A stretch of 64,000 nt of DNA from a virus. The DNA lies in IMG/VR virus record IMGVR_UViG_3300049893_000899, positions 1-64,000 of that record; one strand, written 5' to 3'. A program made the translations under genes and the position numbers. Below, in pieces: positions 1 to 38,379 of this stretch. The notes beneath the pieces are model-generated. The model did not search any database. It was not told the DNA's origin and saw only the letters and a program-made list of their open reading frames with translations. Positions within the stretch are counted from its first letter, which is position 1; each line of letters begins with the position of its first letter.

Positions 1-2309
1 TCCTTCTCTCTCTGTTGAGCTTCACTCGTCTGTCTTGACTTCTCGATAGCTTTATTACCCCATTCAATAACGTCAGGGATATTATTCATATTTCTATCTT
101 TCTCTTCATCAAAACCAGAAGCAACAATAGTAGCTTTAAGAATATCATTCTCTCTATCAAGTTGATTCTCCATAGCCTCAAACTCTCTAGCCTCTCTCTT
201 ATCTTGTAATTGAGCCTGAACAGCTTGATCTCTTGATTCTCTTTCAGCTTGAGCTTGTTGAGCTTGACTCTGTTCAAGTCTAACCTCTCCATTCTCAATA
301 TATTCAATACCTTCAATAAGAGAAGCAGATCTGTATAATTTAGCCAAGTCAGAAAGATTAACCTTACCCTGTTGTAAAGCAGCTTCTGCCAATGCTTCAA
401 TGCGCATTTTATTTCTCTTATCTTTAGAGTAGTTAGAGATAAACACTCCAATATCAGAATCCATTAACATCTCTCCGTCAACAAGTAAAGATTGTACTGT
501 ATTGTCTTTCGACATATAAGTGAATCTTTTCCCTCCAGCAGTAGTAAACTTAGACATCTCAATATAAGCTGTTAATACAGCTTGTTTAATCTCGTCATGT
601 CTAAAGAAGTAATGCTCAGTAATATAGCCTGAATTAATTAAAGCTGTATTAAGACCAGTAGTAGTTTCATATTGAGAAGTGGAGCCAAGTTGTTGTGGGT
701 TCATTCCGCACACTTGGTCCATCAGGAACTCAATCTTAGCCATAATACCAATATACTGTTGTACTACGTTAGCTAAAGACAAGTCTATACTCTGGAACTG
801 ATTAAACCTAGAAACAGAGTTAGGATCTCCATCTCTACCTTCTTCCATTGAGTTAATCCAAGCAATACCAAGGTTATCAAAGTAGTACATCCATTGCTTC
901 ATGTCTATACCGTTTGATTTAGGTATCTGAGCCAAGTCAAACACCATCTTCTTACCTTTTGCTTTAGCTATCTCATTTTCAAGTCTTAACCAGATAGTAT
1001 TATACAACATCTGATACGGAGCAAGTAAATCAACTATACTTGTCGCTTCAGAGTTTAAGTTATTATACAATCCACCAATATAAGGAGACCACACCTCTGT
1101 AGGGCTGTCAATCTTTCTCATTTGGTTTCTACAAGGATTAATGTCAACATAGATGTCAGCGCCAATCTTATGTCCCATCCAATATTCTGGCAACCATTGC
1201 CACTCTAAAGTAGCCCCAATAGCTTTAAGCTCTTCTGTTAGCTTGAATGAATCATCTACGTCTTCCGTCATTGGCATCCCAGATTCAGGATCAACATACG
1301 AAAGATATCCAATCTTCTTCATTGACTTCCACACACAAGTAACAACTCTAATGTTTCCATTGTATCGTTGATTTACATTGTATGTATCTAAATCCTTCAT
1401 TGTAGCCGCATCATACGCGAATCCAGGGTACATGATATTGTTACTCATTGAGTTAACAATCTCCCCATCATCAAGCATCTTCAGTTGAGCTTCAGTAAGG
1501 TATAATCCAAATTCATCTATAACTTCCCCTCTTGACATGAAGCGTTCCTCTCTCTGCCAATCAGATAAGTGAACCCATTCAGTCTCAGGCCCTTTTTCAA
1601 ACTCAAAGTTTAATGGGTTTACAACCCTTAAAGACGTCCTTCCATTTACCGCCCCAACATAATAAACCTCTTCTGAAGCTATTGCGGCATGGCTGAATCC
1701 TTTGTTAAACTTAGCCGGCAATCTATCTGAGTGCATTGCATCTTCAACTATCACTGAAGCGTAATGTTCTCTGATGTCTCTAATTGTTCTGCCGGTGTTC
1801 ATTTGTTTCTTAAGCTCCTTGAAAGAAAGGATTGAATCCATCTTTTGCTCAATCTCTGGATCATTTGGATCAAGCTGAAAAATAGCCATTAACTTCTGCT
1901 GTGTAGTCATTAACAACTCTTGTGTCTGTTGTTCTACCTTAGAGTTAACAACGTGGCCACCAACTCCAACAACATGGTAATCAAACGGTCGCTCTAACTC
2001 TTCCCCAACCAATCTATCAACCCTAATCCTTACTAAGTTATAGTCTCTAAGCTTAGAAGGAGAACCTCCAAACTGTCCGCCAAACTTAAAAGGGTCTGTC
2101 ACATACTTATAATTCTCCTCATTTATTCTGGAGTTCATTAAGTCATAGTTAGCCTGTTTGCTTTGCTTAGATGAACGACCATTCCTCTTCAAAGAGAAAG
2201 CCATACCATCAACAGCATCAACACATTGCTCTCTCCATTTGTCAGTCTTCTTTGACAAAGGAAGCATCTGTTGAGGTAAATACCTCTGGATATTAATGTC
2301 TGTACTCAT
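1..2309 (-). CDS. Portal protein (3' end beyond window)
   Basis: Not in the ORF track because it runs off the edge. ATG at 2309 abuts the terminase stop; N-terminus MSTDINIQRYLPQQMLPLSKKTDKWREQCVDA resembles crAss-like portal N-termini; TerL-portal gene order. Confidence 0.85.
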   Translation of the reverse strand, partial: MSTDINIQRYLPQQMLPLSKKTDKWREQCVDAVDGMAFSLKRNGRSSKQSKQANYDLMNSRINEENYKYVTDPFKFGGQFGGSPSKLRDYNLVRIRVDRLVGEELERPFDYHVVGVGGHVVNSKVEQQTQELLMTTQQKLMAIFQLDPNDPEIEQKMDSILSFKELKKQMNTGRTIRDIREHYASVIVEDAMHSDRLPAKFNKGFSHAAIASEEVYYVGAVNGRTSLRVVNPLNFEFEKGPETEWVHLSDWQREERFMSRGEVIDEFGLYLTEAQLKMLDDGEIVNSMSNNIMYPGFAYDAATMKDLDTYNVNQRYNGNIRVVTCVWKSMKKIGYLSYVDPESGMPMTEDVDDSFKLTEELKAIGATLEWQWLPEYWMGHKIGADIYVDINPCRNQMRKIDSPTEVWSPYIGGLYNNLNSEATSIVDLLAPYQMLYNTIWLRLENEIAKAKGKKMVFDLAQIPKSNGIDMKQWMYYFDNLGIAWINSMEEGRDGDPNSVSRFNQFQSIDLSLANVVQQYIGIMAKIEFLMDQVCGMNPQQLGSTSQYETTTGLNTALINSGYITEHYFFRHDEIKQAVLTAYIEMSKFTTAGGKRFTYMSKDNTVQSLLVDGEMLMDSDIGVFISNYSKDKRNKMRIEALAEAALQQGKVNLSDLAKLYRSASLIEGIEYIENGEVRLEQSQAQQAQAERESRDQAVQAQLQDKREAREFEAMENQLDRENDILKATIVASGFDEEKDRNMNNIPDVIEWGNKAIEKSRQTSEAQQREK

Positions 2310-4511
2310 TTATTCAAATAGTTTTTCTTCAAGAAAGAAATCCTTTCTAATCTTTTTACCCGAACCTTCCTCTATCTTTATGTAATGATGTTGGAGTCTA
2401 TTGCATATAAGTAATAAGAACGCTATTACACGGTCAAAGTTACCTGTCTTATTATACGATATCAACTCCTTCAACAAACCAGCAGAGAATATCTTGTTTA
2501 CTCCAAGAACACCAGCTTCATCTTCTTCATTAAGCCAGTCCCTCGCGTAAATCTCAAGCTCCTCCTTAATCTTGTTTGTCATATGTATGCCGTAATCCCT
2601 ATCTACATTACTCTTTTCTGTAGCCTTAAGAAATGTAGGCATTTTTGCTAACAAATGTAACGATTTTTTTTGCTTAAAGTGAAACTTCATTGAATTTTTC
2701 TCATTCTCGTACAGATTGGTAGCGTTATAATAAGCACACAATCTCCTAACATTCTCATGGTGTTCTTCTGCCCTATCAGGTCTTGCAGTGTATTCAGCAA
2801 CAATAAACTCCCTCGCGCTGCCGTGTCTAAAGTCGCCAATCTTATAGATAAAAGTAGATCCTAACGAAACTGAGTTAGGAGCCTTGTCTTGGTCATAGGG
2901 GTCTGTCGCTGCAATATACATACCATAAGGAATCTCTCCAGGTGCCGGGTGTTCCCATATCTGTACTGAACCAGTGGTATCATCTGTAGATTTCATTGGA
3001 AACCCACAAGCTCTTTTCTTGTTATGTAAATCCGGAGACCACTTAACGCCATACGTAGCATTAGGATCCGAAACTAAATCACCTAGTTGTCCATTTACTT
3101 GAGGAATATCGCAGTTTTCTACAAACTTCAACTGATCAATTAAGTCTGCAATAGGGAATATGTTACCTCCGGATATTAAGAAAGCTTCAGAAGGCACAAT
3201 AGGGTTGTTTTGTAGTTCATTATTCAACGGTTCTTTACTTGAACCTGAAGCCAACTTGTCCCTCTTGCTGTCAATATATTTCATTGCCTGTTCCTTCTTA
3301 GTGAACAGGTTATTGTCTTTGAAGTCATTCAAGCCTTTATAGTAAGGCAAGAAGTAACCTATCTTCTTTGCTGAGCCTTCAAAAGCATCAGAAAATCCTA
3401 AACAGTCAAACTGCTCAGGGTTATAGAATATCTCTTTAAGCTGTTCTGTAGCTCCAGAGATCATTTCACCACCGGTACCAAAAACCCATATAACTCCAAA
3501 TTTAGAAGAGGAGTTCATGGTATTCTCTTTCAAGGCACCCATGGCATCAATAAGGTTAGACATAAAACCTGCCTCTTCAATAAAGACTAAGTTGTTACGC
3601 AAACCGTTACCTGCTGTAGCCTTCTCTTGGAATGTTCTATGTGATATCATAGAACCACTACCCTTCACCTTACCAGTCTTCAAGTCTTTAACACTTGCCA
3701 ACATATCCTTACCAGGCATCAATGACCCTGAAGTTTCATGCTGGAAAGGAGCCATATAGTACATATCCCCCTCTTCAAAAGAACCATATAGGTTATTATA
3801 CCCATCAAGGAACTTATCAAGCAAACCCTTGCTATACTTAGCATCAAACGCTCCAACAAGAGAAGAACTTCGTAAAGGCTCCCCTGCTTTTTTAGCATCT
3901 ACATACTGTTCATATCCTTCAGCTCCATCTGTAATAAAGTTATGACATAACAAAGCCGCAGCAAAGAAAGACTTACCAGTACCCCTGGCCTCAAGGTCAA
4001 CAACATTCTTAGCTTCGTTCTTATATAAAGGAATACCACTTAGATTGTGGCTATCCCAAAGATAACTCAACGCGTCTACATACTCCTTAAAAGAACCATC
4101 TTCTTTAAACACTGTAACATCAAGGAAGTGAAACCTATAGTCTTCTTTTATAGCTTCAAAGTCTCCATTATACTCTTCGTTAAGTTCTTTTACAAGCCTA
4201 ACACAGGTCTTTTCTTTATCATCACTGAAGCCAGAAAAGCCTTTAGCTACAAGATAGATATAGGCTTTCTCCCATTCATTATCTCGTAGCCAAGGCCTTC
4301 CTAATATCTCCTGTTTAGAAAACCTATCTTTCTTAACCTTAATCTTGAAGTGGTTAACATAGAAGTAAAGAACCCCAGGGCAATAATACCCTCCAGCCCA
4401 CATACCATCAAAGACTCTTCTCTTCTCGTCCTTCCAGTATATCTTGTACTCCATACTTTTAGGATGAAAGATTGGAGCCTCGTTGAAAGTATATAAACTA
4501 GGATTTCTCAT
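2310..4511 (-). CDS. terL: Terminase large subunit
   Basis: Walker A ARGTGKS, Walker B-like VFIEEAG, motif III GTGG, RNase H-like nuclease with ATDPYD and FDRVIAF; crAss-like architecture. Confidence 0.93.
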   Translation of the reverse strand: MRNPSLYTFNEAPIFHPKSMEYKIYWKDEKRRVFDGMWAGGYYCPGVLYFYVNHFKIKVKKDRFSKQEILGRPWLRDNEWEKAYIYLVAKGFSGFSDDKEKTCVRLVKELNEEYNGDFEAIKEDYRFHFLDVTVFKEDGSFKEYVDALSYLWDSHNLSGIPLYKNEAKNVVDLEARGTGKSFFAAALLCHNFITDGAEGYEQYVDAKKAGEPLRSSSLVGAFDAKYSKGLLDKFLDGYNNLYGSFEEGDMYYMAPFQHETSGSLMPGKDMLASVKDLKTGKVKGSGSMISHRTFQEKATAGNGLRNNLVFIEEAGFMSNLIDAMGALKENTMNSSSKFGVIWVFGTGGEMISGATEQLKEIFYNPEQFDCLGFSDAFEGSAKKIGYFLPYYKGLNDFKDNNLFTKKEQAMKYIDSKRDKLASGSSKEPLNNELQNNPIVPSEAFLISGGNIFPIADLIDQLKFVENCDIPQVNGQLGDLVSDPNATYGVKWSPDLHNKKRACGFPMKSTDDTTGSVQIWEHPAPGEIPYGMYIAATDPYDQDKAPNSVSLGSTFIYKIGDFRHGSAREFIVAEYTARPDRAEEHHENVRRLCAYYNATNLYENEKNSMKFHFKQKKSLHLLAKMPTFLKATEKSNVDRDYGIHMTNKIKEELEIYARDWLNEEDEAGVLGVNKIFSAGLLKELISYNKTGNFDRVIAFLLLICNRLQHHYIKIEEGSGKKIRKDFFLEEKLFE

Positions 4512-30200: not shown

Positions 30201-30992
30201 ATGATAATATTAATAGATGGAGACATCCTTGTTTACAGATTTGCCTATGAAGGCAAGAAACAAGAAGAGCAACCATTGTTCTCTGCTTCAGAAACAAAGA
30301 CTCTTGAAGAGTGCTATGAAAACGTAGACAAGTTCATGGAAAATCTTAAAGCTGAAGTTCCTTCTGTTGGTTATATCGGTTATCTTTCTTGTAAAAGAAA
30401 AGATACTTTCAGAGTTCCAATATCTCAGTCAAGAGAATATAAAGGCAACAGAAAGACAGAGCCTCCTAAATATTACACAGAAATAAAGCAATACTTTATT
30501 GAGAAGTATAACTTTATTCAATTGAAGCAGATAGAAGCTGATGATGCATTATCTATAAAAGGAACTGAACTATATCCAGATTGTATAATATGTAGTACAG
30601 ATAAAGACCTTAGACAGATAAAAGGAAATCATTACAATCCTAATACAAATGACTTCTTTAGAACAACAGATGATGGCCCATCTAGGTTATTGTTGAAGCA
30701 ATTAGTGACAGGCGATTCTACTGACAACATTGAAGGGATAAGAAAAAGAGGTCCTAAAGCAGCAGAAAAGATAGTACATGATAACTTAGATATAGAACTC
30801 ATACCTCAGGTAATATTGAACGAATATATTGCTGAATACGGATTGGAAGAAGGTATGAGAAGATTCTCTGAAACATATCTATTAGTGTATCTATTAAGAG
30901 AAAATAGTTTTAACGAAGAACTTGGAGAAGTTACTTATTGGAATAAAAATGGAAGAACAACAGAACAACCAGAAGAAGGATTATTCTTTTGA
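30201..30992 (+). CDS. 5'-3' exonuclease / flap endonuclease (T7 gp6 / PolA N-terminal-like)
   Basis: IDGD, YKGNR, EADD, DKDLRQ, GDSTDNIEG, GPKAA. Confidence 0.92.
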   Translation: MIILIDGDILVYRFAYEGKKQEEQPLFSASETKTLEECYENVDKFMENLKAEVPSVGYIGYLSCKRKDTFRVPISQSREYKGNRKTEPPKYYTEIKQYFIEKYNFIQLKQIEADDALSIKGTELYPDCIICSTDKDLRQIKGNHYNPNTNDFFRTTDDGPSRLLLKQLVTGDSTDNIEGIRKRGPKAAEKIVHDNLDIELIPQVILNEYIAEYGLEEGMRRFSETYLLVYLLRENSFNEELGEVTYWNKNGRTTEQPEEGLFF

Positions 30993-32557: not shown

Positions 32558-33350
32558 ATGAGTAAGGAAAAGACTAAATTAGCAATGATACATCCATTTG
32601 ATAGTAGTAAATCAATGACTGTACTTCATCTACTCCAATCTGAAATATGGTTGAAGCACATGATAGATCAGATTGAATATCAAACAAAAAAGTTTGGATG
32701 GAAGCAGAACAAAGAGTTCATGAACAAGACCAAGAACGCTTTGCAATCTATTAGGTTTTATAATCATTCAATCAGAGTTGACTACAATGATGATGAAATG
32801 TATGAGGTTACAGCAAAAGTGTCAGATCAAATCTGCAAAGTAGTAAACCTTTCATCAGAAGACAGAGCTAAAGTTTATGAACTCATTGAAGAGCTTACAG
32901 GAACGCAAAGTAAGTTCACTACAGACCACACAGAACTAATCAAAGAGTATCTTGGAAAACTAGACGAAGCAAGAGTTAAGTATTCAAAGATAATAAAACA
33001 AGAATGCGTTGGAGCTGTTGTACTTGGAGGTGAGTTCCCTACTGTTGAAGATGCTATCAATGCACATAACATATTAGCTAGGCTAAATGTTACATATCAG
33101 TATCCAGTTAATTTGATTAGTGAAATTAAATAAGGCGGAAATTATGAATTACCAACAGCAATTAAATTCAATACACAGTTATCTTATGTATAAGAAATTC
33201 CCTTATCATAGTTTATCTGTGATACACAGACACCAAGATTTAGGTTTTCACGTTTTCTTTTCGGATGATGTAAAGGAAATGGTAACTGATGAAATTAAAG
33301 AGCATTTAGCTGCTTATGCGTTTCATTGGTCTTTCGTTAAAAGCAATTAA
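32558..33350 (+). CDS. Two hypothetical proteins (32558-33133, 33120-33350)
   Basis: Coupled ORFs. Confidence 0.55.
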
Positions 33351-33368
33351 TATTTAAAACTATGGCAA

Positions 33369-33489
33369 GACTAACGGTTTGCAGATTGGCGTTGTTGCCA
33401 CACAAATGTTTAATTGAAACACTAAATTTAATAATATGGAAAATGATAATTTGAAAACGGAAAGCAATAACGCCAATGTGCTGTTAGCT
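33369..33489 (-). mobile_element. attC-like recombination hairpin A
   Basis: Top strand CTAAC-GGTTT-GCA-G-ATTGGCGTTGTTGC...GCAATAACGCCAAT-G-TGC-T-GTTAG; bottom strand reads ...TAAC...AAACCGTTAG. Confidence 0.7.
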
Positions 33490-33654
33490 GCTGTGCCTGA
33501 TTGTAAAGATATGGATTACGATAAGGTAAGGGCTATCGGCAAGGAAAAGTATTGTATAAAAGGAATAAGCTGTAATTTCTGCGACTTCATGGATAGAGAT
33601 AGAGGTAAAATAAATAGTTGCGTTCAGGAGTATGTCAAAAGGCATTGCATCTAA
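33436..33654 (+). CDS. Cassette gene A (Cys-rich small protein)
   Basis: Starts in the loop of hairpin A; its stop TAA is part of the next TAAC core. Confidence 0.65.
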   Translation: MENDNLKTESNNANVLLAAVPDCKDMDYDKVRAIGKEKYCIKGISCNFCDFMDRDRGKINSCVQEYVKRHCI

Positions 33655-33779
33655 CGTTTTGCAGCTAACCGAAGTTGGCGATTACGAAGCACAAAAATTC
33701 AAATTAAATAAATGTTAAACCGAAGCACAACAGCTCATTTCAGCACTACACCGCCAATCTTGGTTAGGTGCTGTTATAT
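33649..33779 (-). mobile_element. attC-like recombination hairpin B
   Basis: CTAAC-GTTTT-GCA-G-CTAACCGAAGTTGGCG...CGCCAATCTTGGTTAG-G-TGC-T-GTTAT. Confidence 0.7.
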
Positions 33780-33805
33780 GCTGTGCTTCTCAAATCTTAA
33801 TTAAA

Positions 33806-34006
33806 ATGACAAAAGGAACTTTTCAAAAAACAGTAGAAAGTGCAGAATACGATTTTGTTCGTGATAAAGCACAAAGAGAAACGATTGAATTACTTGCTAA
33901 GACTTTGATTGAAGTTAGAAAGCACATGACCGCACACATTCCTGAAAAGGTATTTGATATGGTTGATGATGCACTTTCTAAGTCGGGTTTTCAGCATAGC
34001 ATATAA
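33806..34006 (+). CDS. Cassette gene B
   Basis: Bounded by GTTATATGCTGTGCT and AGCATAGCATATAAC; stop lies in TAAC. Confidence 0.65.
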   Translation: MTKGTFQKTVESAEYDFVRDKAQRETIELLAKTLIEVRKHMTAHIPEKVFDMVDDALSKSGFQHSI

Positions 34007-34025
34007 CTACAATATATACGCAGTT
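34004..34025 (-). other. Recurrent array-end (attI-like) site TAACTAYAATATATACGCAGTT, copy 1
   Basis: 21/22 identical to 37354-37375; a related copy lies at 36049-36070. Confidence 0.55.
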
Positions 34026-34047
34026 AAACAAATAAACAATTAAGAAA

Positions 34048-36039
34048 ATGAAAGAAAAAATAAAAGGCTTTTCCGACCCTAGGCTGGTCGGTAGAGAGGT
34101 GTATGTTAGGGATGTGAAGATGGTTATTAGTAAAATAAATGATAGCCACACAATGTGTATAAAAAAAGAGTACGGTATTAATCGTTCATTTCTTCATGAT
34201 GGAAGGCATACTTCGATTGATTTACTACCTATTTTATCCTTCACACCATACACCGTAGAAATAAATGAAAACGGTCAAGTAACAATCAAAGGCTACTCGG
34301 ATGAAATTGAATTAGAATCAGAGGACAAGCCGAAAGAGGGTGATTGTGGTTGGTTTTGGGATTCTGAATATTGTCGTTATTTTAGGTATGGTACGATTGC
34401 AAGAATAAGCTCTGCTTACTATATTGGTACTGCTCCTTACAAAAACTTCTCAAAAACATGCCCTGAGTGGATTAAAGAAATTGTAAATAAGTAAAATATG
34501 GAAAAAATAAGCGTAAAAGATAATAAAGTTATTTTAACCGTAACGCCACAAGAAACTAATAAGTTCTTAGAAAAGGGTACTATTATTTCATGGAATGAAA
34601 GTATTAATTTCCTCGAAAACTATAAATCTGATGAAATAGTAGATGTTGTTGATAGTAATAGTAAAATTGACTTAGAAGCATCTAAAATGCTAAAAAGAAT
34701 ATCTGAGCTAAATATAGAAAAAGAATTGTTAATTAATAAACTATTAGAAACATGCAAGGAAGAAAAATAAAACACAAAGAAACTGGAGAGGTTTTTATAT
34801 TCTTACAGTTTGAGGCTTCATCTAAGACTTTAGACGACAACAAACAAGTAGTATCATTAGCTGTTATAGTAGAAGATAAAAACGGAAATATTTGTATTTT
34901 CTCAGCTAATGATGTGCAATTCGTAAAAGAAGAGCCTATCAAAACAGAAACAACAGGAATAGACATGATGAAGCATAAAGCGGAATCAATGCCGACCTTA
35001 CAAAATAGCATTGAAGTGTGGGCGTGTATGGATAGAAGTGGATTTGTTAATATTGCAGCAAAAAAGAATTTCTATAAAAATAATGAAATTTGGAGCTCTC
35101 ACGATGAGTTGTTTATGTCAACTAACATAGAAGACTTCATACAAGCATTCCAAGGCTTATCTTGGAACGATGAAGGACCTAAGAAGTTTAGAATTAGTGT
35201 AGAGCCTTTGGGGTAACGAATAAAAGCCGTTTTATTATGGAAAAAACATCATTATGTTGTTAAAATTATTAAAGAGATTATTCAAATCTAAAACAAAATC
35301 AAAAAAAGATTCTAAAACAAAATCAAAAGAAGATGTTTTTATTCTTAGAAAATATTGTAGTGGTTGTGATTCTATTCAAGTGCATCACGATAGCCCTTTT
35401 GAAGAGCCATTTTGTTATAGATGTTATAATAGACAACATGGGTATTAAAAAATAAAAGCCGTTTTACTTAGTAGGACGGTAATGTTAAATTTAAAAGATA
35501 AGATTATGGACAACCTAAAATTGACGACACCATTTGTTCCACAGGAACAAAACACTATCTTTATTATGCAAGATAATGGCACAAGAGAAATTCTAAAGCT
35601 TTGTGGAAACGGAGATATTTTCGTAAAAGGCAGATTAGCAGAAAATGACAAAGAAGTAGTTGATGCTTTAAGAGAGTTTCTCAAAGGGCAAGGCTTATTA
35701 AAATAGCCGATAACAAATAAAAGCCGTTTTACTCGGTTTGTAGTAACTTTAAAATGAAATAAAATGAGCAACACAACATTAAATTTAAACAGCGTGGGTA
35801 CAACTACAAGCGTCAGTCTTTGGTCAACACCTGAAAGAGTAGATGTAATTGAAAACTCTGATAGTATCGAGTTCGTGTATAAAGAAACTTCAATGATTTC
35901 CTACACATCAATTCCAGCACCACCACCACAAGTAAGAGTTTTCAAAATCGTCTTTTCTTGTGTAGATGGCAAGTGGAATAAATCGGAAAGAATTTATGGT
36001 CAAATTGTTCCTGCTGAAAATGAACGATACGTTTTTTAG
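34048..36039 (+). CDS. Accessory ORFs (34048-34494, 34498-34770, 34752-35216, 35254-35448 Zn-ribbon-like, 35482-35706, 35764-36039)
   Basis: Co-oriented ORFs; the last three are each flanked by AATAAAAGCCGTYTTA repeats. Confidence 0.6.
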
Positions 36040-36090
36040 CATTGCCTATAACTATCAGATATGTGCAACAAACAAATAAAAGCCGTCTTA
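35219..36090 (+). repeat. Intergenic 16-bp direct repeat AATAAAAGCCGTYTTA x4
   Basis: Copies at 35219, 35451, 35716 and 36075, one per gene junction. Confidence 0.9.
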
Positions 36091-36106
36091 CTAAACGATT
36101 AAGAAA

Positions 36107-36598
36107 ATGGAAAAAGTATTAGAAAAATTCACTATTGATGATGTGGAGGTTGGTGATGTTTTTCTTCATAAACACAATAAATCAAGATTTACTGTTTCAG
36201 AAAAACATAAAGATAAAGGTTATATTCTTTTAAAAAGTTATGGAGCACTTTGGGCTTTAAGTTTTTACTATTTCGATCTAATTAAAAAAAGTAATAAAAC
36301 TGAAACACAAACAGAGGAACAATTAATAGAACAACAGCCAACCTCAATAAAATCCGTCTTATCAGGTATTGACAAGCTTCTAGAATACAAAGAAAGTAAG
36401 TATGGCAATGCACTAAACAACGATCGTTTAAAAGTGTTTTCTGGTAAATGCAAATTTGGAGATATACTTGACGCAAAACTAAACAGAGTAGCCAACGGAG
36501 AAGAGCTACTAAAGAACGATGTTGTAGATATAGCAGGCTATCTAATCCTAACACTAAGAGAAAAAGGATGGGATGATTTTAGTGAGTTTATGGACTGA
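36107..36598 (+). CDS. Protein with C-terminal DUF1599/Nmad (MazG-superfamily) domain
   Basis: LLEYKESKYGNA...DAKLNRV...DVVDIAGYLIL. Confidence 0.65.
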   Translation: MEKVLEKFTIDDVEVGDVFLHKHNKSRFTVSEKHKDKGYILLKSYGALWALSFYYFDLIKKSNKTETQTEEQLIEQQPTSIKSVLSGIDKLLEYKESKYGNALNNDRLKVFSGKCKFGDILDAKLNRVANGEELLKNDVVDIAGYLILTLREKGWDDFSEFMD

Positions 36599-36622
36599 AA
36601 ATAAGGCTTAAATTTATGAGAT

Positions 36623-36973
36623 ATGACTGAAAAAGAATTGTTAATTGAGTTGTGTAATAATCTTGAAAAAGAACTCAATCAAAGAGATGGAAAGAAAACG
36701 CATAAAGTACAATTACAAAGCGGATTAAAGCCTGAAAACTATTTCGTTCCAATGATGAGCATAGGAATAACAAGAAAATCGTATAATGGTGTTAGTATGG
36801 CTTGGTTTGTTGAAGTGTGGGTTGATGGAAAATGTATATTCAGAGAATCACATGTGCCACACAAAACAGAAAAGCTTGAAATAGTTGAAGGATTTTTGAT
36901 TAAAAGGGTTTTCAGACACATCTTCACATTTGGAGTTATGTCAAGTAAAAAAACCATTGATGAACTTGTGTGA
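36623..36973 (+). CDS. Hypothetical protein bracketed by 20-bp direct repeats
   Basis: ORF track plus flanking repeats. Confidence 0.6.
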   Translation: MTEKELLIELCNNLEKELNQRDGKKTHKVQLQSGLKPENYFVPMMSIGITRKSYNGVSMAWFVEVWVDGKCIFRESHVPHKTEKLEIVEGFLIKRVFRHIFTFGVMSSKKTIDELV

Positions 36974-36996
36974 ATTATGGACTGAAAATAAGGCGG

Positions 36997-37129
36997 CAAT
37001 AACGGTTTGAAGCTATGCTTAGTTGCGGACTTAAATAACAAAATTTTTAATTAACAACAAAATATAATAAAATGGAAAAAGTATCAGATTACAACGGAAC
37101 TCCGCAATTAGGCATAGCTGCAGTTAGCA
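36997..37129 (-). mobile_element. attC-like recombination hairpin C
   Basis: ATAAC-GGTTT-GAA-GCTATGCTTAGTTGCGGA...TCCGCAATTAGGCATAGC-TGC-A-GTTAG. Confidence 0.7.
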
Positions 37130-37356
37130 GCCGTTTTAATTTCGGACAAGAGGTGTGGTTCTTAAATGGACGACACATTATGAATGGTAAGATAGAAGCT
37201 GTTAGAGGGCAGAAACATTGCCTATACGAACACACCGACATTGAATTGGAAGTTTACCATACAAGCGGTGAAATAGGGTGTAAGTTTTGGGTAAAAGATG
37301 AAGATTGTTTTGAAAGCAGACAAGCGTTGATAGATGCGGTCTTAAATGGCTGCTAA
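37072..37356 (+). CDS. Cassette gene C
   Basis: Starts in the loop of hairpin C; cassette ends GTTAGCAGCCGTTT / AAATGGCTGCTAAC; stop lies in TAAC. Confidence 0.65.
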   Translation: MEKVSDYNGTPQLGIAAVSSRFNFGQEVWFLNGRHIMNGKIEAVRGQKHCLYEHTDIELEVYHTSGEIGCKFWVKDEDCFESRQALIDAVLNGC

Positions 37357-37375
37357 CTATAATATATACGCAGTT
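37354..37375 (-). other. Recurrent array-end (attI-like) site, copy 2
   Basis: TAACTATAATATATACGCAGTT. Confidence 0.55.
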
Positions 37376-37425
37376 CAAACTAAATAAGGCGGCAATAACT
37401 GCCGTCTTACTAAAAATAAATTATC

Positions 37426-37852: not shown

Positions 37853-38341
37853 ATGGCAAATATTTGTGATGTATACGTTGAGTTCTACAACGTGAAAGAT
37901 GAACAAAAACATCTTATTACTGAAGAAAACTTCAAGAATGAAGAAATCAAAACAAACAACGACGGTTGGGTTGATATAGAGTTTGTTAATGAAGGACTAA
38001 ACACGTTATCTATGTCCTCAGCGTGGTCAGCTCCTATTTCTTGGTTTGAAGGTTTTTGCGCTGAACATGGCTTAGATGGAAGAATGTATTTCTATGAGCC
38101 TGGATGTTGTTATCATGGATATGCTGACGTTACAGATGGCCACATTCAAACAACATACTATGATAATAATTTTGAATATCTTTACCTACATAATAACGAA
38201 GGCTTCTGGGATGAAGTAAATTATTTCTTAGAAGAAGATATGCTAGAAGAAGAAGAATGGAATGAAAGAGTTCTTAAGTATATTTCTCTTGAAGATAAGA
38301 AAACATTAATTGAAATGATTGAAAAACAAAAAAAGGGATAA
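37853..38341 (+). CDS. DUF1281/YubB-like ferredoxin-fold protein
   Basis: MANIC...SAWSAP...YEPG pattern. Confidence 0.6.
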   Translation: MANICDVYVEFYNVKDEQKHLITEENFKNEEIKTNNDGWVDIEFVNEGLNTLSMSSAWSAPISWFEGFCAEHGLDGRMYFYEPGCCYHGYADVTDGHIQTTYYDNNFEYLYLHNNEGFWDEVNYFLEEDMLEEEEWNERVLKYISLEDKKTLIEMIEKQKKG

Positions 38342-38363
38342 CTTCGGTTATCCCTTTTTTTTT
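38328..38363. terminator. Bidirectional terminator at the convergence of the two transcription blocks
   Basis: A-run, GGGATAAC-TTCG-GTTATCCC, T-run. Confidence 0.9.
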
Positions 38364-38379
38364 ACAAGACCAACGCTTA

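Follow-up and report, generated by a model that had tools for sequence, protein, structure and literature searches.

Three small genes of a crAss-like phage of about 95 kb are packaged as integron-style cassettes, genes A and B in a first mini-array and gene C in a second. In our assessment, the region most likely consists of two short arrays (A and B; C) of mobile gene cassettes of the integron type, for which an Xer-like enzyme, cutting at TAA/C (the slash marks the cut) and insertion at an attI-like site are inferred. The window, a stretch of 64,000 nt from this phage, had been described in an earlier note as carrying small genes that start inside attC-like hairpins; these hairpins and cassettes are confirmed, and the integron-like reading that the note gave them is supported, its structural claims having all held under testing, with four qualifications. 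The features referred to below all lie on the plus strand.

33372-33486, plus: attC-like hairpin 1 (TAAC foot 33372-33375, GTTA foot 33483-33486)
33381-33398 and 33464-33481, plus: arms of hairpin 1, enclosing a 65-nt loop that contains the gene A ATG
33375-33654, plus: cassette A, hairpin 1 and gene A (borders inferred from the TAA/C rule)
33436-33654, plus: gene A (72 aa, Cys-rich, no family)
33652-33776, plus: attC-like hairpin 2 (20-nt arms)
33655-34006, plus: cassette B, hairpin 2, a 30-aa loop-initiated ORF and gene B
33712-33804, plus: 30-aa ORF, starting in the hairpin 2 loop and stopping 1 nt before the gene B ATG
33806-34006, plus: gene B (66 aa)
34004-34025, plus: attI-like core at the end of mini-array 1, TAAC-TACAA-TATA-TA-CGC-AGTT
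36049-36070, plus: diverged attI-like relative, TAAC-TATCA-GATA-TG-TGC-AAC, after the gene at 35764-36039
36985-37002 (left) and 37381-37398 (right), plus: 18-bp direct repeat AAATAAGGCGGCAATAAC, bracketing cassette C and its attI-like core
37000-37126, plus: attC-like hairpin 3 (25-nt arms 37008-37032 and 37098-37122; the 65-nt loop contains the gene C ATG)
37003-37356, plus: cassette C, hairpin 3 and gene C
37072-37356, plus: gene C (94 aa)
37354-37375, plus: attI-like core at the end of mini-array 2, TAAC-TATAA-TATA-TA-CGC-AGTT

Three hairpins of a Bacteroidota site family

All three imperfect palindromes were found in the window with the scaffold claimed for them. It opens with TAAC, followed by G and 4 nt; two arms of 18-25 nt then enclose an AT-rich loop of 65-71 nt, and 0-1 nt separates the second arm from the closing GTTA. 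The window contains exactly three copies of the sequence TAACGKTTTGMAG, as does the complete 95,355-bp genome, each of them on the plus strand. A covariance model trained on 42 bacterial sites only (from Bacteroidota genomes, with no phage sites) detected exactly these three hairpins, each at full length on the plus strand, with 68.9 bits for hairpin 1 (E 1.4e-15), 104.9 bits for hairpin 2 (E 7.9e-25) and 75.6 bits for hairpin 3 (E 2.6e-17), against at most about 18 bits on the minus strand (16.3 for hairpin 1 and 18.4 for hairpin 3). Single-sequence folding of the plus strand was only moderately better than that of shuffled sequences (z -2.5, -1.5 and -2.1), and the case therefore rests on comparison through the covariance model; for hairpin 2, the fold of minimum energy differs from the long hairpin.

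The individual hairpins display further features of the family. The arms of hairpin 2 have its G-G mismatch at position 4 and its G.T wobbles, and the loop contains the CGAAGCAC repeat motif, as in the bacterial sites with which it was aligned. Compensatory changes are present in the arms of the hairpin 3 copy in viral contigs L008/L009. In viral contig L035, a hairpin with 88% identity to hairpin 1 is attached to an unrelated gene body. Chromosomal integrons usually have similar sites on unrelated cassettes, but the likeness is also compatible with exchange at the GTTA side.

Exact matches to TAACGGTTTGCAG-N90-110-GTGCTGTTA number more than 120 in genome_contigs, nearly all of them in Bacteroidota and many arrayed. 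An alignment of 82 sites displays double compensatory changes at 18 of 19 stem pairs, with one pair being G.U in 75 of the 82 sequences. The two strands are not equivalent: on the strand with the long 5' spacer, the ratio of G.T to A.C is 304:89 in viral sites and 418:189 in bacterial sites.

Cassette ends and gene polarity

As had been proposed, the stop codons of genes A, B and C are each the TAA of a TAAC core. The accompanying claim that the site carries the translation start stood for genes A and C, whose ATG lies in the hairpin loop, and not for gene B, which starts beyond hairpin 2; a start within the site is confined to the long-loop class. The mutually complementary cassette ends are real for all three cassettes. 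In cassette A, positions 33483-33498 pair with 33640-33655 (13 Watson-Crick pairs and one G.T, at position 11, of 16), and the corresponding helices of cassette B (33773-33787 with 33993-34007) and cassette C (37122-37136 with 37344-37358) are each 93% complementary. In bacteria and phages alike, this pairing extends over about 15 bp and includes a conserved G.T wobble at position 11. Over positions 1-5, the Watson-Crick fraction of a cassette's own ends is 0.92-0.97 in bacteria (0.28-0.62 with shuffled partners) and 0.63-0.76 in viral arrays (0.26-0.52), and a G.T at position 7 after GTTA is present in 0.70-0.74 of cassettes in both the bacterial and the viral sets.

The suggestion that gene polarity is reversed was borne out by the wider comparison, in which 40 phage cassette genes lie on the folding strand and 2 opposite it (42 in total), whereas 42 of 46 bacterial ones lie opposite the folding strand (4 on the same strand). 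Because phage cassette genes are encoded by the folding strand and point away from their sites, each hairpin stands at the 5' end of its gene. Phage hairpins are transcribed on the sense strand, and part of their conservation may thus reflect a role at the RNA level.

Terminal sites and the associated recombinase

Both mini-arrays close on the shared 22-bp non-hairpin end that the earlier note had placed at 34004 and 37354 (two copies, zero expected by chance). This phage end fits the core of a bacterial attI-like consensus adjoining the recombinase gene, TAAC-T-N4-TATA-NN-CGC, which lies about 100 nt past the recombinase stop codon in 12 bacterial loci; the array of the Flavobacterium phage snork ends in a related site. 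The relative at 36049 is also present, with 77% identity over 35 nt, and is the weakest part of the set; it has no attached hairpin and was compared with the consensus by eye only. The right copy of the 18-bp direct repeat belongs to an intact small hairpin, GGCGGCA-ATAAC-TGCCGTC. This suggests that the cassette C module was inserted at the loop TAAC of the small hairpin, or between two hairpin copies, which we could not resolve.

In Bacteroidota, the array adjoins the genome's best integron-integrase-like gene in all three evaluable genomes, and at least 14 of 120 bacterial loci (8 kb each) contain a homologue. These observations support the placement of the hairpins in a site family whose cassette arrays stand beside a tyrosine recombinase in Bacteroidota chromosomes. 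The bacterial recombinase matches TIGR02249 at positions 2-179 and 239-315 only (206 bits, cut-off 265) and passes NF040815 (233 bits, cut-off 220), and the domains of the array-linked enzymes, in bacteria and two viral contigs, are PF13495 and PF00589. The bacterial enzyme is an Xer-like tyrosine recombinase without the extra IntI-defining domain, and for this reason we describe the system as integron-like rather than as a classical integron.

The absence of an integrase, claimed for the window, extends to the whole source genome, which encodes no tyrosine, serine or Y1 recombinase. Some related phages have their own recombinase, unlike the source phage; in viral contigs L122 and L061, a 264-265-aa recombinase of the Xer-like array-associated kind adjoins the arrays.

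Movement of cassettes among phages

Cassette C occurs in three viral contigs, including the source phage, with unrelated flanks and with borders exactly at TAAC. Window positions 36999-37357 match 13043-13401 of L011 (91%) and 413-768 of L009 (78%), and since the matched spans end at TAAC on both sides, this is where the homology stops. In two pairs of otherwise identical Flavobacterium phage isolates, the difference is exactly one cassette: sniff9-1 and sniff9-2 match at 100% outside a single hairpin-plus-gene unit of 439 bp, which has ATAACG at its flanks, and snork6-1 and snork6-2 differ in one 342-bp unit inserted directly before a TAAC-TACAATAT terminal site. The moving unit is thereby supported to be a hairpin with its downstream gene, bounded at TAA/C, the point at which integron crossover takes place on the folding (bottom) strand. 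Because direct repeats of 6 and 12 nt flank the two isolate indels, these could also have arisen by replication slippage, and recombination itself in the source phage is inferred, not shown.

Discussion

Under the integron-type reading, a cassette runs on the plus strand as C-(G+4 nt)-arm-loop-arm-(T)-GTTA-x-gene-x'-TAA, and this strand, when single-stranded, would fold into the recombination site. This site comprises an R-type helix of about 15 bp (x'-TAAC paired with GTTA-x), in which the G.T at position 11 is conserved, a one-sided spacer of 4-5 nt, and an L-type stem that likewise contains a conserved G.T, together with a G-G mismatch. The Xer-like array-associated recombinase would cut at TAA/C, the excised cassette would circularize, its two ends restoring the R helix, and would be inserted at the attI-like core TAAC-TAYAATATATACGC closing each array. 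The source phage encodes no such enzyme, and we therefore infer that it comes from a Bacteroidota host or a co-infecting phage; a single-stranded substrate, a circular intermediate and activity of any kind in the source phage are likewise inferred only. In the long-loop class, the hairpin supplies an AT-rich leader, the start codon and about the first 15 codons. Speaking against this reading, the source genome lacks a recombinase of any tested class, the associated recombinase of the relatives is without the IntI-specific domain, and the site has neither the symmetric unpaired spacer nor the extrahelical bases that classical attC has. In addition, Qi et al. (2023, PMC9892861) tested six sites with IntI1, and the single one that was not recombined was P12002L_attC1, the only phage site of the Bacteroidota family among them.

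The hairpins could instead be chiefly RNA-level modules, acting in mRNA processing or stability or presenting translation starts in Bacteroidota, which lack Shine-Dalgarno sequences, in which case shuffling would be due only to ordinary recombination, by homology or microhomology, between conserved motifs at the boundaries, as has been suggested for the PeSL regulatory cassettes of T4-type phages. The phage folding strand is the sense strand, so that the G.U-tolerant fold exists in mRNA; the start codons of genes A and C lie within AT-rich loops, and the closing helix of short-loop units extends over the leader immediately upstream of the ATG. Modular shuffling in phages by way of boundary motifs has a published precedent in the PeSLs. 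However, bacterial sites are antisense to their genes, and the fold therefore cannot be an mRNA feature there, yet stems, G.T positions and own-end complementarity are the same. The sites are moreover linked to a tyrosine recombinase and an attI-like core, and neighboring arms differ, leaving only about 5-10 nt shared for homologous exchange. We consider this combination of RNA role and ordinary recombination unlikely.

Also quite improbable in our judgment is that these are relic arrays captured from bacteria, with no dedicated phage enzyme, gaining cassettes by general recombination between phages and losing them by replication slippage across the folded cassette between short direct repeats, like the precise excision of inverted-repeat transposons. 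The repeats flanking both isolate indels would fit such losses, the 18-bp repeat around cassette C and its attI-like core is not something a tyrosine recombinase would make, and the source genome encodes no recombinase. Simple bacterial capture does not, however, explain why phage cassettes form their own pool with mirrored polarity and site-embedded starts; the same cassette has exact TAAC borders in three unrelated flanks, own-end complementarity, which matters only if the ends meet, is kept in phages, and some phages have kept a recombinase beside the array. Single-strand transposons of the IS200/IS605 or REP/RAYT type, with an HUH (Y1) endonuclease cutting beside TAAC, would account for strand-specific hairpins with a fixed 4-nt left flank, borders without target-site duplication and tandem build-up at a site regenerated by each insertion. 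This possibility is very remote in our view: the source genome has no Y1 transposase, the bacterial and two viral-contig arrays are linked instead to the PF13495/PF00589 recombinase, and both the R-type helix built from a cassette's own ends and the attI-like site agree with the logic of integrons rather than with that of IS200.

The arrays resemble classical integrons (above all sedentary chromosomal ones with attC sites of about 125 nt, such as the Vibrio cholerae repeats) in their single-gene cassettes, separated by imperfect palindromes that are conserved in structure and variable in sequence, with AAC...GTT cores. One strand only folds well, with crossover at AA/C on that strand; the first bases of a cassette complement the inverse core at its other end; and a non-palindromic attI-type site lies at the array end, by a tyrosine recombinase gene in the bacterial relatives. 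They differ in that the associated recombinase is Xer-like, without the extra IntI domain, that the R helix extends over about 15 bp rather than 7 bp and includes a fixed G.T, that the spacer is one-sided (5 nt against 1 nt), that no canonical extrahelical bases are seen, that in phages the folding strand carries the genes, whose starts fall within the site or directly behind it, and that the source phage has no recombinase. XerA-type "integron integrases" (NCBIfam NF040815, "site-specific tyrosine recombinase/integron integrase") are a further likeness, in that the bacterial enzyme scores above the model cut-off; the model is named for archaeal XerA, and the source phage has no such enzyme.

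PeSL mobile regulatory cassettes of T4-type phages share with the present arrays small genes of unknown function, a variable phage region, a repeated stem-loop-bearing boundary motif and shuffling between related phages (Arbiol et al. 2010, PMC2839356; Comeau et al. 2014, PMC4122927). The PeSL motifs are promoter-terminator sequences that stay conserved and presumably work by homologous recombination; here the arms co-vary instead, each border consists of a 4-nt core, and the family, which bacterial chromosomes contain too, is tied to a site-specific recombinase.

Clusters of attC sites lacking an integrase (CALINs) have already been published in virulent phages (Qi et al. 2023, Front Microbiol, PMC9892861), where 17 were found in 10,705 genomes and treated as rare. 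One of these phages is P12002L, a flavobacterial Polaribacter phage with methyltransferase cassettes, and its attC1 shares the grammar of the Bacteroidota family (TAAC-G-GCTA-arm...arm-ATT-GTTA). The study noted "divergent directions" and not mirrored gene polarity, and did not report a Bacteroidota-specific family, an Xer-like recombinase, an attI-like end or cassette-exact isolate indels. We found no description in the literature of the Bacteroidota variant or its mirrored gene polarity. The site family is common to Bacteroidota chromosomes and Bacteroidota phages.

Hairpin cassettes in a crAss-like phage genome

The source record is 95,355 bp long and rated 100% complete in IMG/VR, the window covering its first 64 kb. 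Small genes and replication genes occupy the plus strand to ~38.3 kb and structural genes, including a 3728-residue open reading frame (ORF), the minus strand, a layout resembling that of the crAss-like Cellulophaga phage phi14:2. Because a PHROG scan of the large ORFs returned only tail fibre and helicase matches and no crAss family, the crAss-like label rests on this layout, the 3728-residue ORF, and overall size.

Three palindromes lie in the plus-strand block exactly where an earlier, sequence-only note had placed them, and they bound two mini-arrays, each closed by a 22-bp attI-like core.

Cassette features of the window
33372-33486, plus strand: hairpin 1, opening cassette A
33436..33654, plus strand: gene A
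33652-33776, plus strand: hairpin 2, opening cassette B
33806..34006, plus strand: gene B
34004-34025: 22-bp core closing the array of cassettes A and B
37000-37126, plus strand: hairpin 3, opening cassette C
37072..37356, plus strand: gene C
37354-37375: 22-bp core closing the array of cassette C

All three hairpins follow one scaffold, consisting of TAAC, a G plus 4 nt, an arm of 18-25 nt, an AT-rich loop of 65-71 nt, the complementary arm, 0-1 nt, and GTTA. The whole genome contains three copies of the foot motif TAACGKTTTGMAG, all of them on the plus strand. Hairpins 1 and 2 are 280 nt apart, with hairpin 3 located 3.3 kb further on. The remaining architecture described in the earlier note was borne out as well: genes A and C begin inside hairpin loops, the stop codon of each of genes A, B, and C is the TAA of a TAAC, the bases after each GTTA pair with those before the next TAAC, and the 22-bp site is present twice when none is expected by chance. 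Gene B starts after hairpin 2, directly behind a 30-residue ORF that begins in that loop. Every wobble-type pair in the stems is a G.T on the plus strand. Non-wobble departures from pairing are limited to a single G-G or A-G mismatch in each hairpin and, in the closing helix of cassette A, two mismatches (C-T and T-T). Single-sequence folding of the hairpins is only moderately better than that of shuffled controls, and the argument therefore has to be comparative.

The genome itself offers few further clues. No tyrosine recombinase (searched also by tblastn), serine recombinase, or IS200/Y1 transposase was found anywhere in its 95 kb, which agrees with the earlier claim that an integrase is missing. 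Neither megablast nor blastn matched the region to any of 50,697 phage records, the flanking genes 32558..33133 and 30201..30992 have no relatives in IMG/VR, and Pfam and PHROG searches with genes A, B, and C and their neighbors yielded nothing informative, a weak sub-threshold match of gene A to EBA-175_VI reflecting its cysteines.

The hairpins belong to a site family of Bacteroidota

Among the matches listed for GTDB genomes, the pattern TAACGGTTTGCAG-N90-110-GTGCTGTTA occurs in more than 120 places, nearly all of them in Bacteroidota (including Flavobacterium, Hymenobacter, Chitinophaga, Pedobacter, and Cytophagales), with many sites arrayed at a spacing of roughly 1 kb. A covariance model of 126 positions, trained on 42 bacterial array sites only, aligns to the three window hairpins over its full length (positions 1-126) on the plus strand, with scores of 104.9, 75.6, and 68.9 bits; the minus strand of the window reaches at most 18 bits, and no other part of the 64 kb comes near these scores. 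Across 82 aligned sites, TAAC and GTTA are invariant (82/82), 18 of the 19 stem pairs show double compensatory changes, and one pair is G.U in 75 sites. The attC criterion of an imperfect palindrome with inverse core AAC and core GTT, in which structure is kept over sequence, is thus satisfied.

The cassette ends likewise behave as R boxes would. Across 78 bacterial and 63 viral cassettes, complementarity between the two ends of one cassette greatly exceeds that between shuffled partners, as expected if these ends meet in a circular intermediate, and a G.T pair at the seventh base after GTTA recurs in 70-74% of cassettes in both sets. The criterion of ends complementary within one cassette is met, including by window cassettes A, B, and C. 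The 5' spacer measures 5 nt and the 3' spacer 0-3 nt, and instead of a recognizable extrahelical G and T the sites show a G-G mismatch and two G.T wobbles, all three conserved; the reference here is what we take to be the geometry of attC_aadA7 and VCR. On the strand with the long 5' spacer, a strand-neutral scan counted 304 G.T against 89 A.C in viral sites and 418 against 189 in bacterial sites. Two motifs recur in the hairpin 2 loop (33680-33750) and in many bacterial sites: CGAAGCAC(A)AAAC, which is repeated twice, and CACTGAACC. The ~70-nt loop is hence not free sequence, and it may bind a protein.

The bacterial arrays lie next to a recombinase

In all three evaluable bacterial genomes, 0.9-3.2 kb separate the array from the gene that, of the whole genome, best matches the integron integrase model, and a homolog of this recombinase is present in at least 14 of 120 bacterial 8-kb loci. 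The array-associated protein carries PF13495 and PF00589 domains and passes NF040815 ("tyrosine recombinase/integron integrase") with 233 bits against a cut-off of 220. It falls below the cut-off of TIGR02249 (206 versus 265 bits) because only model positions 2-179 and 239-315 match, and the extra-domain segment is ~40 residues short. The enzyme accordingly has no counterpart of the extra domain that defines IntI; the IntI-specific additional domain was found neither in the window genome, which has no recombinase, nor in the enzyme adjacent to the bacterial arrays.

In 12 bacterial loci, the motif TAAC-T-N4-TATA-NN-CGC is located ~100 nt beyond the recombinase stop codon, followed by a second TATA..CGC repeat. 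Both 22-bp sites of the window (34004-34025 and 37354-37375) fit the consensus of these loci, with the phage core TAAC-TACAA-TATA-TA-CGC-AGTT placed at the equivalent array end. The second repeat, ~45 nt further on in bacteria, is absent at the window sites. The exact 22-bp site also appears in unrelated viral contigs: L004 (10161-10182) and L006 (7461-7482), labeled as a giant-virus MAG and a 133-kb virus, and L005 (11720-11741 and 12709-12731), in which the site precedes a thymidylate-synthase-like gene and a diverged copy follows that gene. One contig with the exact site has an ATG 5 nt downstream of it and a eukaryote-type kinase gene close by.

Cassettes move as exact units among phages

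Gene C has homologs in two viral contigs. DNA homology of cassette C runs from TAAC to TAAC, with window positions 36999-37357 corresponding to 13043-13401 of L011 (91%) and 413-768 of L009 (78%), and the flanks are unrelated in all three contigs. A block so bounded indicates that the traveling unit is the hairpin plus its downstream gene. In one of the gene C contigs (71 kb), such hairpins number more than 25, and each lies on the same strand as the genes.

A 14-base pattern recovered at least 118 IMG/VR loci, ~40 of which have at least one hairpin of this grammar, with up to nine sites per viral locus examined and length classes of about 48, 57, 79, 88, 115, 125, and 191 nt. Cultured carriers are the Flavobacterium phages hemulen, sniff, and snork (Lillamyvirus, 38-39 kb; 6-8 sites each), whose site region also encodes several DNA methyltransferases, and a 462-kb uncultured phage likewise carries sites. 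Over 8.7 kb, the only difference between the isolates sniff9-1 and sniff9-2, otherwise 100% identical, is a hairpin-plus-gene unit of 439 bp with ATAACG as its flanking direct repeat. Between isolates snork6-1 and snork6-2, the difference is a single unit of 342 bp with CTTGCTTATAAC on its flanks; it is inserted immediately ahead of TAAC-TACAATATTACATGAT, which is related to the 22-bp site of the window. These indels imply that living phage lineages acquire or shed cassettes as precise units.

Two further viral contigs encode a complete tyrosine recombinase of 264-265 residues directly after cassette arrays and on the gene strand: L122 (65 kb; 1719..2513, minus strand) and L061 (117 kb; 695..1492, plus strand). 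The two enzymes share 46% identity with one another and 38-49% with the enzyme associated with the bacterial arrays, and these contigs are complete phage-borne versions of the system.

Hairpin 1 (33372-33486) is 88% identical to a hairpin in contig L035 (4264-4378), where it is joined to an unrelated gene body. Two different proteins thereby have a common site-encoded N-terminus (..SNNANVLL.AV..).

Phage cassettes have mirrored polarity

Bacterial cassette ORFs lie opposite the folding strand (42 versus 4), as in classical integrons, whereas ORFs of the viral contigs and phage isolates lie on it (40 versus 2), so that the reversed polarity proposed from the window alone extends to its relatives. 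In phages, each gene consequently has its site at the 5' end, and the attI-like core follows downstream of the array. The classical criterion of ORFs opposite the recombinogenic strand is not met in phages, and the bacterial arrays alone are canonical; the strand asymmetry itself is present in the G.T versus A.C counts and in the plus versus minus covariance scores. Besides the recombinase, two query families of cassette proteins have matches across phage and bacterial arrays; homologs of one family occupy the opposite strand at two bacterial loci and the same strand at another, too few cases for a conclusion.

This arrangement is unusual in that a site at the 5' end of a gene can encode its start, and it raises the question of whether transcription with the folding strand as non-template promotes cassette turnover.

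Other repeats near the arrays

Several further features surround the mini-arrays.

Repeats and other features near the window arrays
35214-35239, 35446-35471, 35711-35736, 36070-36095, 37394-37414: second repeat family, (TAAC)RAATAAAAGCCGTYTTACT, separating small genes between the mini-arrays
35287-35334: 24-nt tandem duplication inside ORF 35254..35448, giving a repeated lysine-/serine-rich stretch, KSKTKSKKDSKTKSKED, in a small Cys-containing protein
36588-36607, 36975-36994: perfect 20-bp duplication, TTATGGACTGAAAATAAGGC, flanking the single gene 36623..36973
36985-37002, 37381-37398: 18-bp direct repeat, AAATAAGGCGGCAATAAC, bracketing cassette C and its attI-like core
38268-38366: sub-threshold Rfam match to sraA (35 bits, E 0.019) where the plus and minus gene blocks converge

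The core of the second repeat family, GCCGTTTTA, resembles a conserved stretch just after GTTA in cassettes (GTTAGCAGCCGTTTTAAT in cassette C); the family could be what is left of cassette junctions without their hairpins, or else a terminator or promoter motif with no relation to the cassettes. The right copy of the 18-bp repeat is part of an intact small hairpin, GGCGGCA-ATAAC-TGCCGTC; at the left copy, cassette C begins right after the TAAC of the loop. A tyrosine recombinase would not produce such a duplication. The first 20-bp copy includes the stop codon of the upstream gene, and gene 36623..36973 looks like a separate, hairpin-free insertion. The sraA-like match is probably just a bidirectional terminator hairpin.

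Discussion

The window units are best supported as integron-type cassettes of a Bacteroidota-specific variant, carried by a phage that encodes no recombinase. The data show that the sites belong to the family, that cassettes move with exact borders, and that relatives link them to a recombinase and an attI-like core; the observation of the earlier note is thereby confirmed and its integron-like reading supported. Which enzyme acts on the window phage, a single-stranded substrate, and any present-day activity are inferred.

The locus satisfies the definition of a CALIN (at least two sites within a few kilobases and no integron integrase in the replicon), with sites called by our family-specific model and not by that of IntegronFinder. 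Qi et al. (2023, PMC9892861) counted 17 such integrase-less attC clusters among 10,705 phage genomes. One of the carriers is Polaribacter phage P12002L, whose attC1 has exactly the grammar of the window hairpins. Although predicted by HattCI, P12002L_attC1 was the sole site of six not recombined by IntI1 (PMC9892861). IntegronFinder 2.0 found one complete integron in Bacteroidetes, in Salinibacter (10.1101/2022.02.28.482270). Our limited literature search found no published description of this Bacteroidota family, its recombinase, or its mirrored polarity.

Hairpins between small phage genes also invite other explanations. The mobile regulatory cassettes of T4-type phages (PeSL) require a conserved early promoter and terminator stem-loop at their boundaries; the window hairpins do not meet this, differing in their variable sequence, 65-nt loops, and lack of a T-run. 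The Bacteroidota -7 promoter motif is TAnnTTTG, and a -33/-7 promoter reading of the TAACGGTTTG foot was rejected, as by eye it does not fit this motif and the spacing is wrong. We also considered that a virion RNA polymerase might use the hairpins, or cruciforms, as promoters, since gp66 of phi14:2 transcribes single-stranded DNA, without a known early motif (10.1101/2020.03.07.982082). We dropped this idea because the G.T wobbles favor the sense strand and not the template strand, and the first 50 kb of phi14:2 contain no such hairpin site. An Rfam scan of 30-40 kb gave only sub-threshold chance matches (microRNA precursors on hairpin 3). A role of the hairpins at the RNA level in phages remains open, as does replication slippage as a route to cassette loss. 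Neither excludes the cassette reading.

Taken together, these data can be read as a phylum-wide, unrecognized integron variant run by an Xer-like recombinase that lacks the IntI domain, its ~150-nt sites combining fixed G.T wobbles with a long R helix. Bacteroidota phages would hold a separate cassette pool in mirror polarity, its site doubling as a translation-start module, and would exchange cassettes during infection via a host or phage-borne recombinase, thereby shuffling early and anti-defense genes. For this joint reading in all its parts, we regard the chances as evenly balanced.

Integrons have been viewed as almost absent from Bacteroidetes (10.1101/2022.02.28.482270) and rare in phages (PMC9892861). 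In contrast, one narrow DNA pattern leads to >120 Bacteroidota sites, and arrays occur in dozens of viral contigs, including cultured Flavobacterium phages. The sniff and snork pairs, grown on cultured Flavobacterium strains, provide a direct experimental system. If the Xer-like recombinase drives these cassettes, then integron-type capture is far wider than surveys based on the IntI domain or proteobacterial attC models can see, and phages as different as a crAss-like phage, 39-kb siphoviruses, and a 462-kb phage, all seen with such sites, would use it to swap small early genes and DNA methyltransferases.
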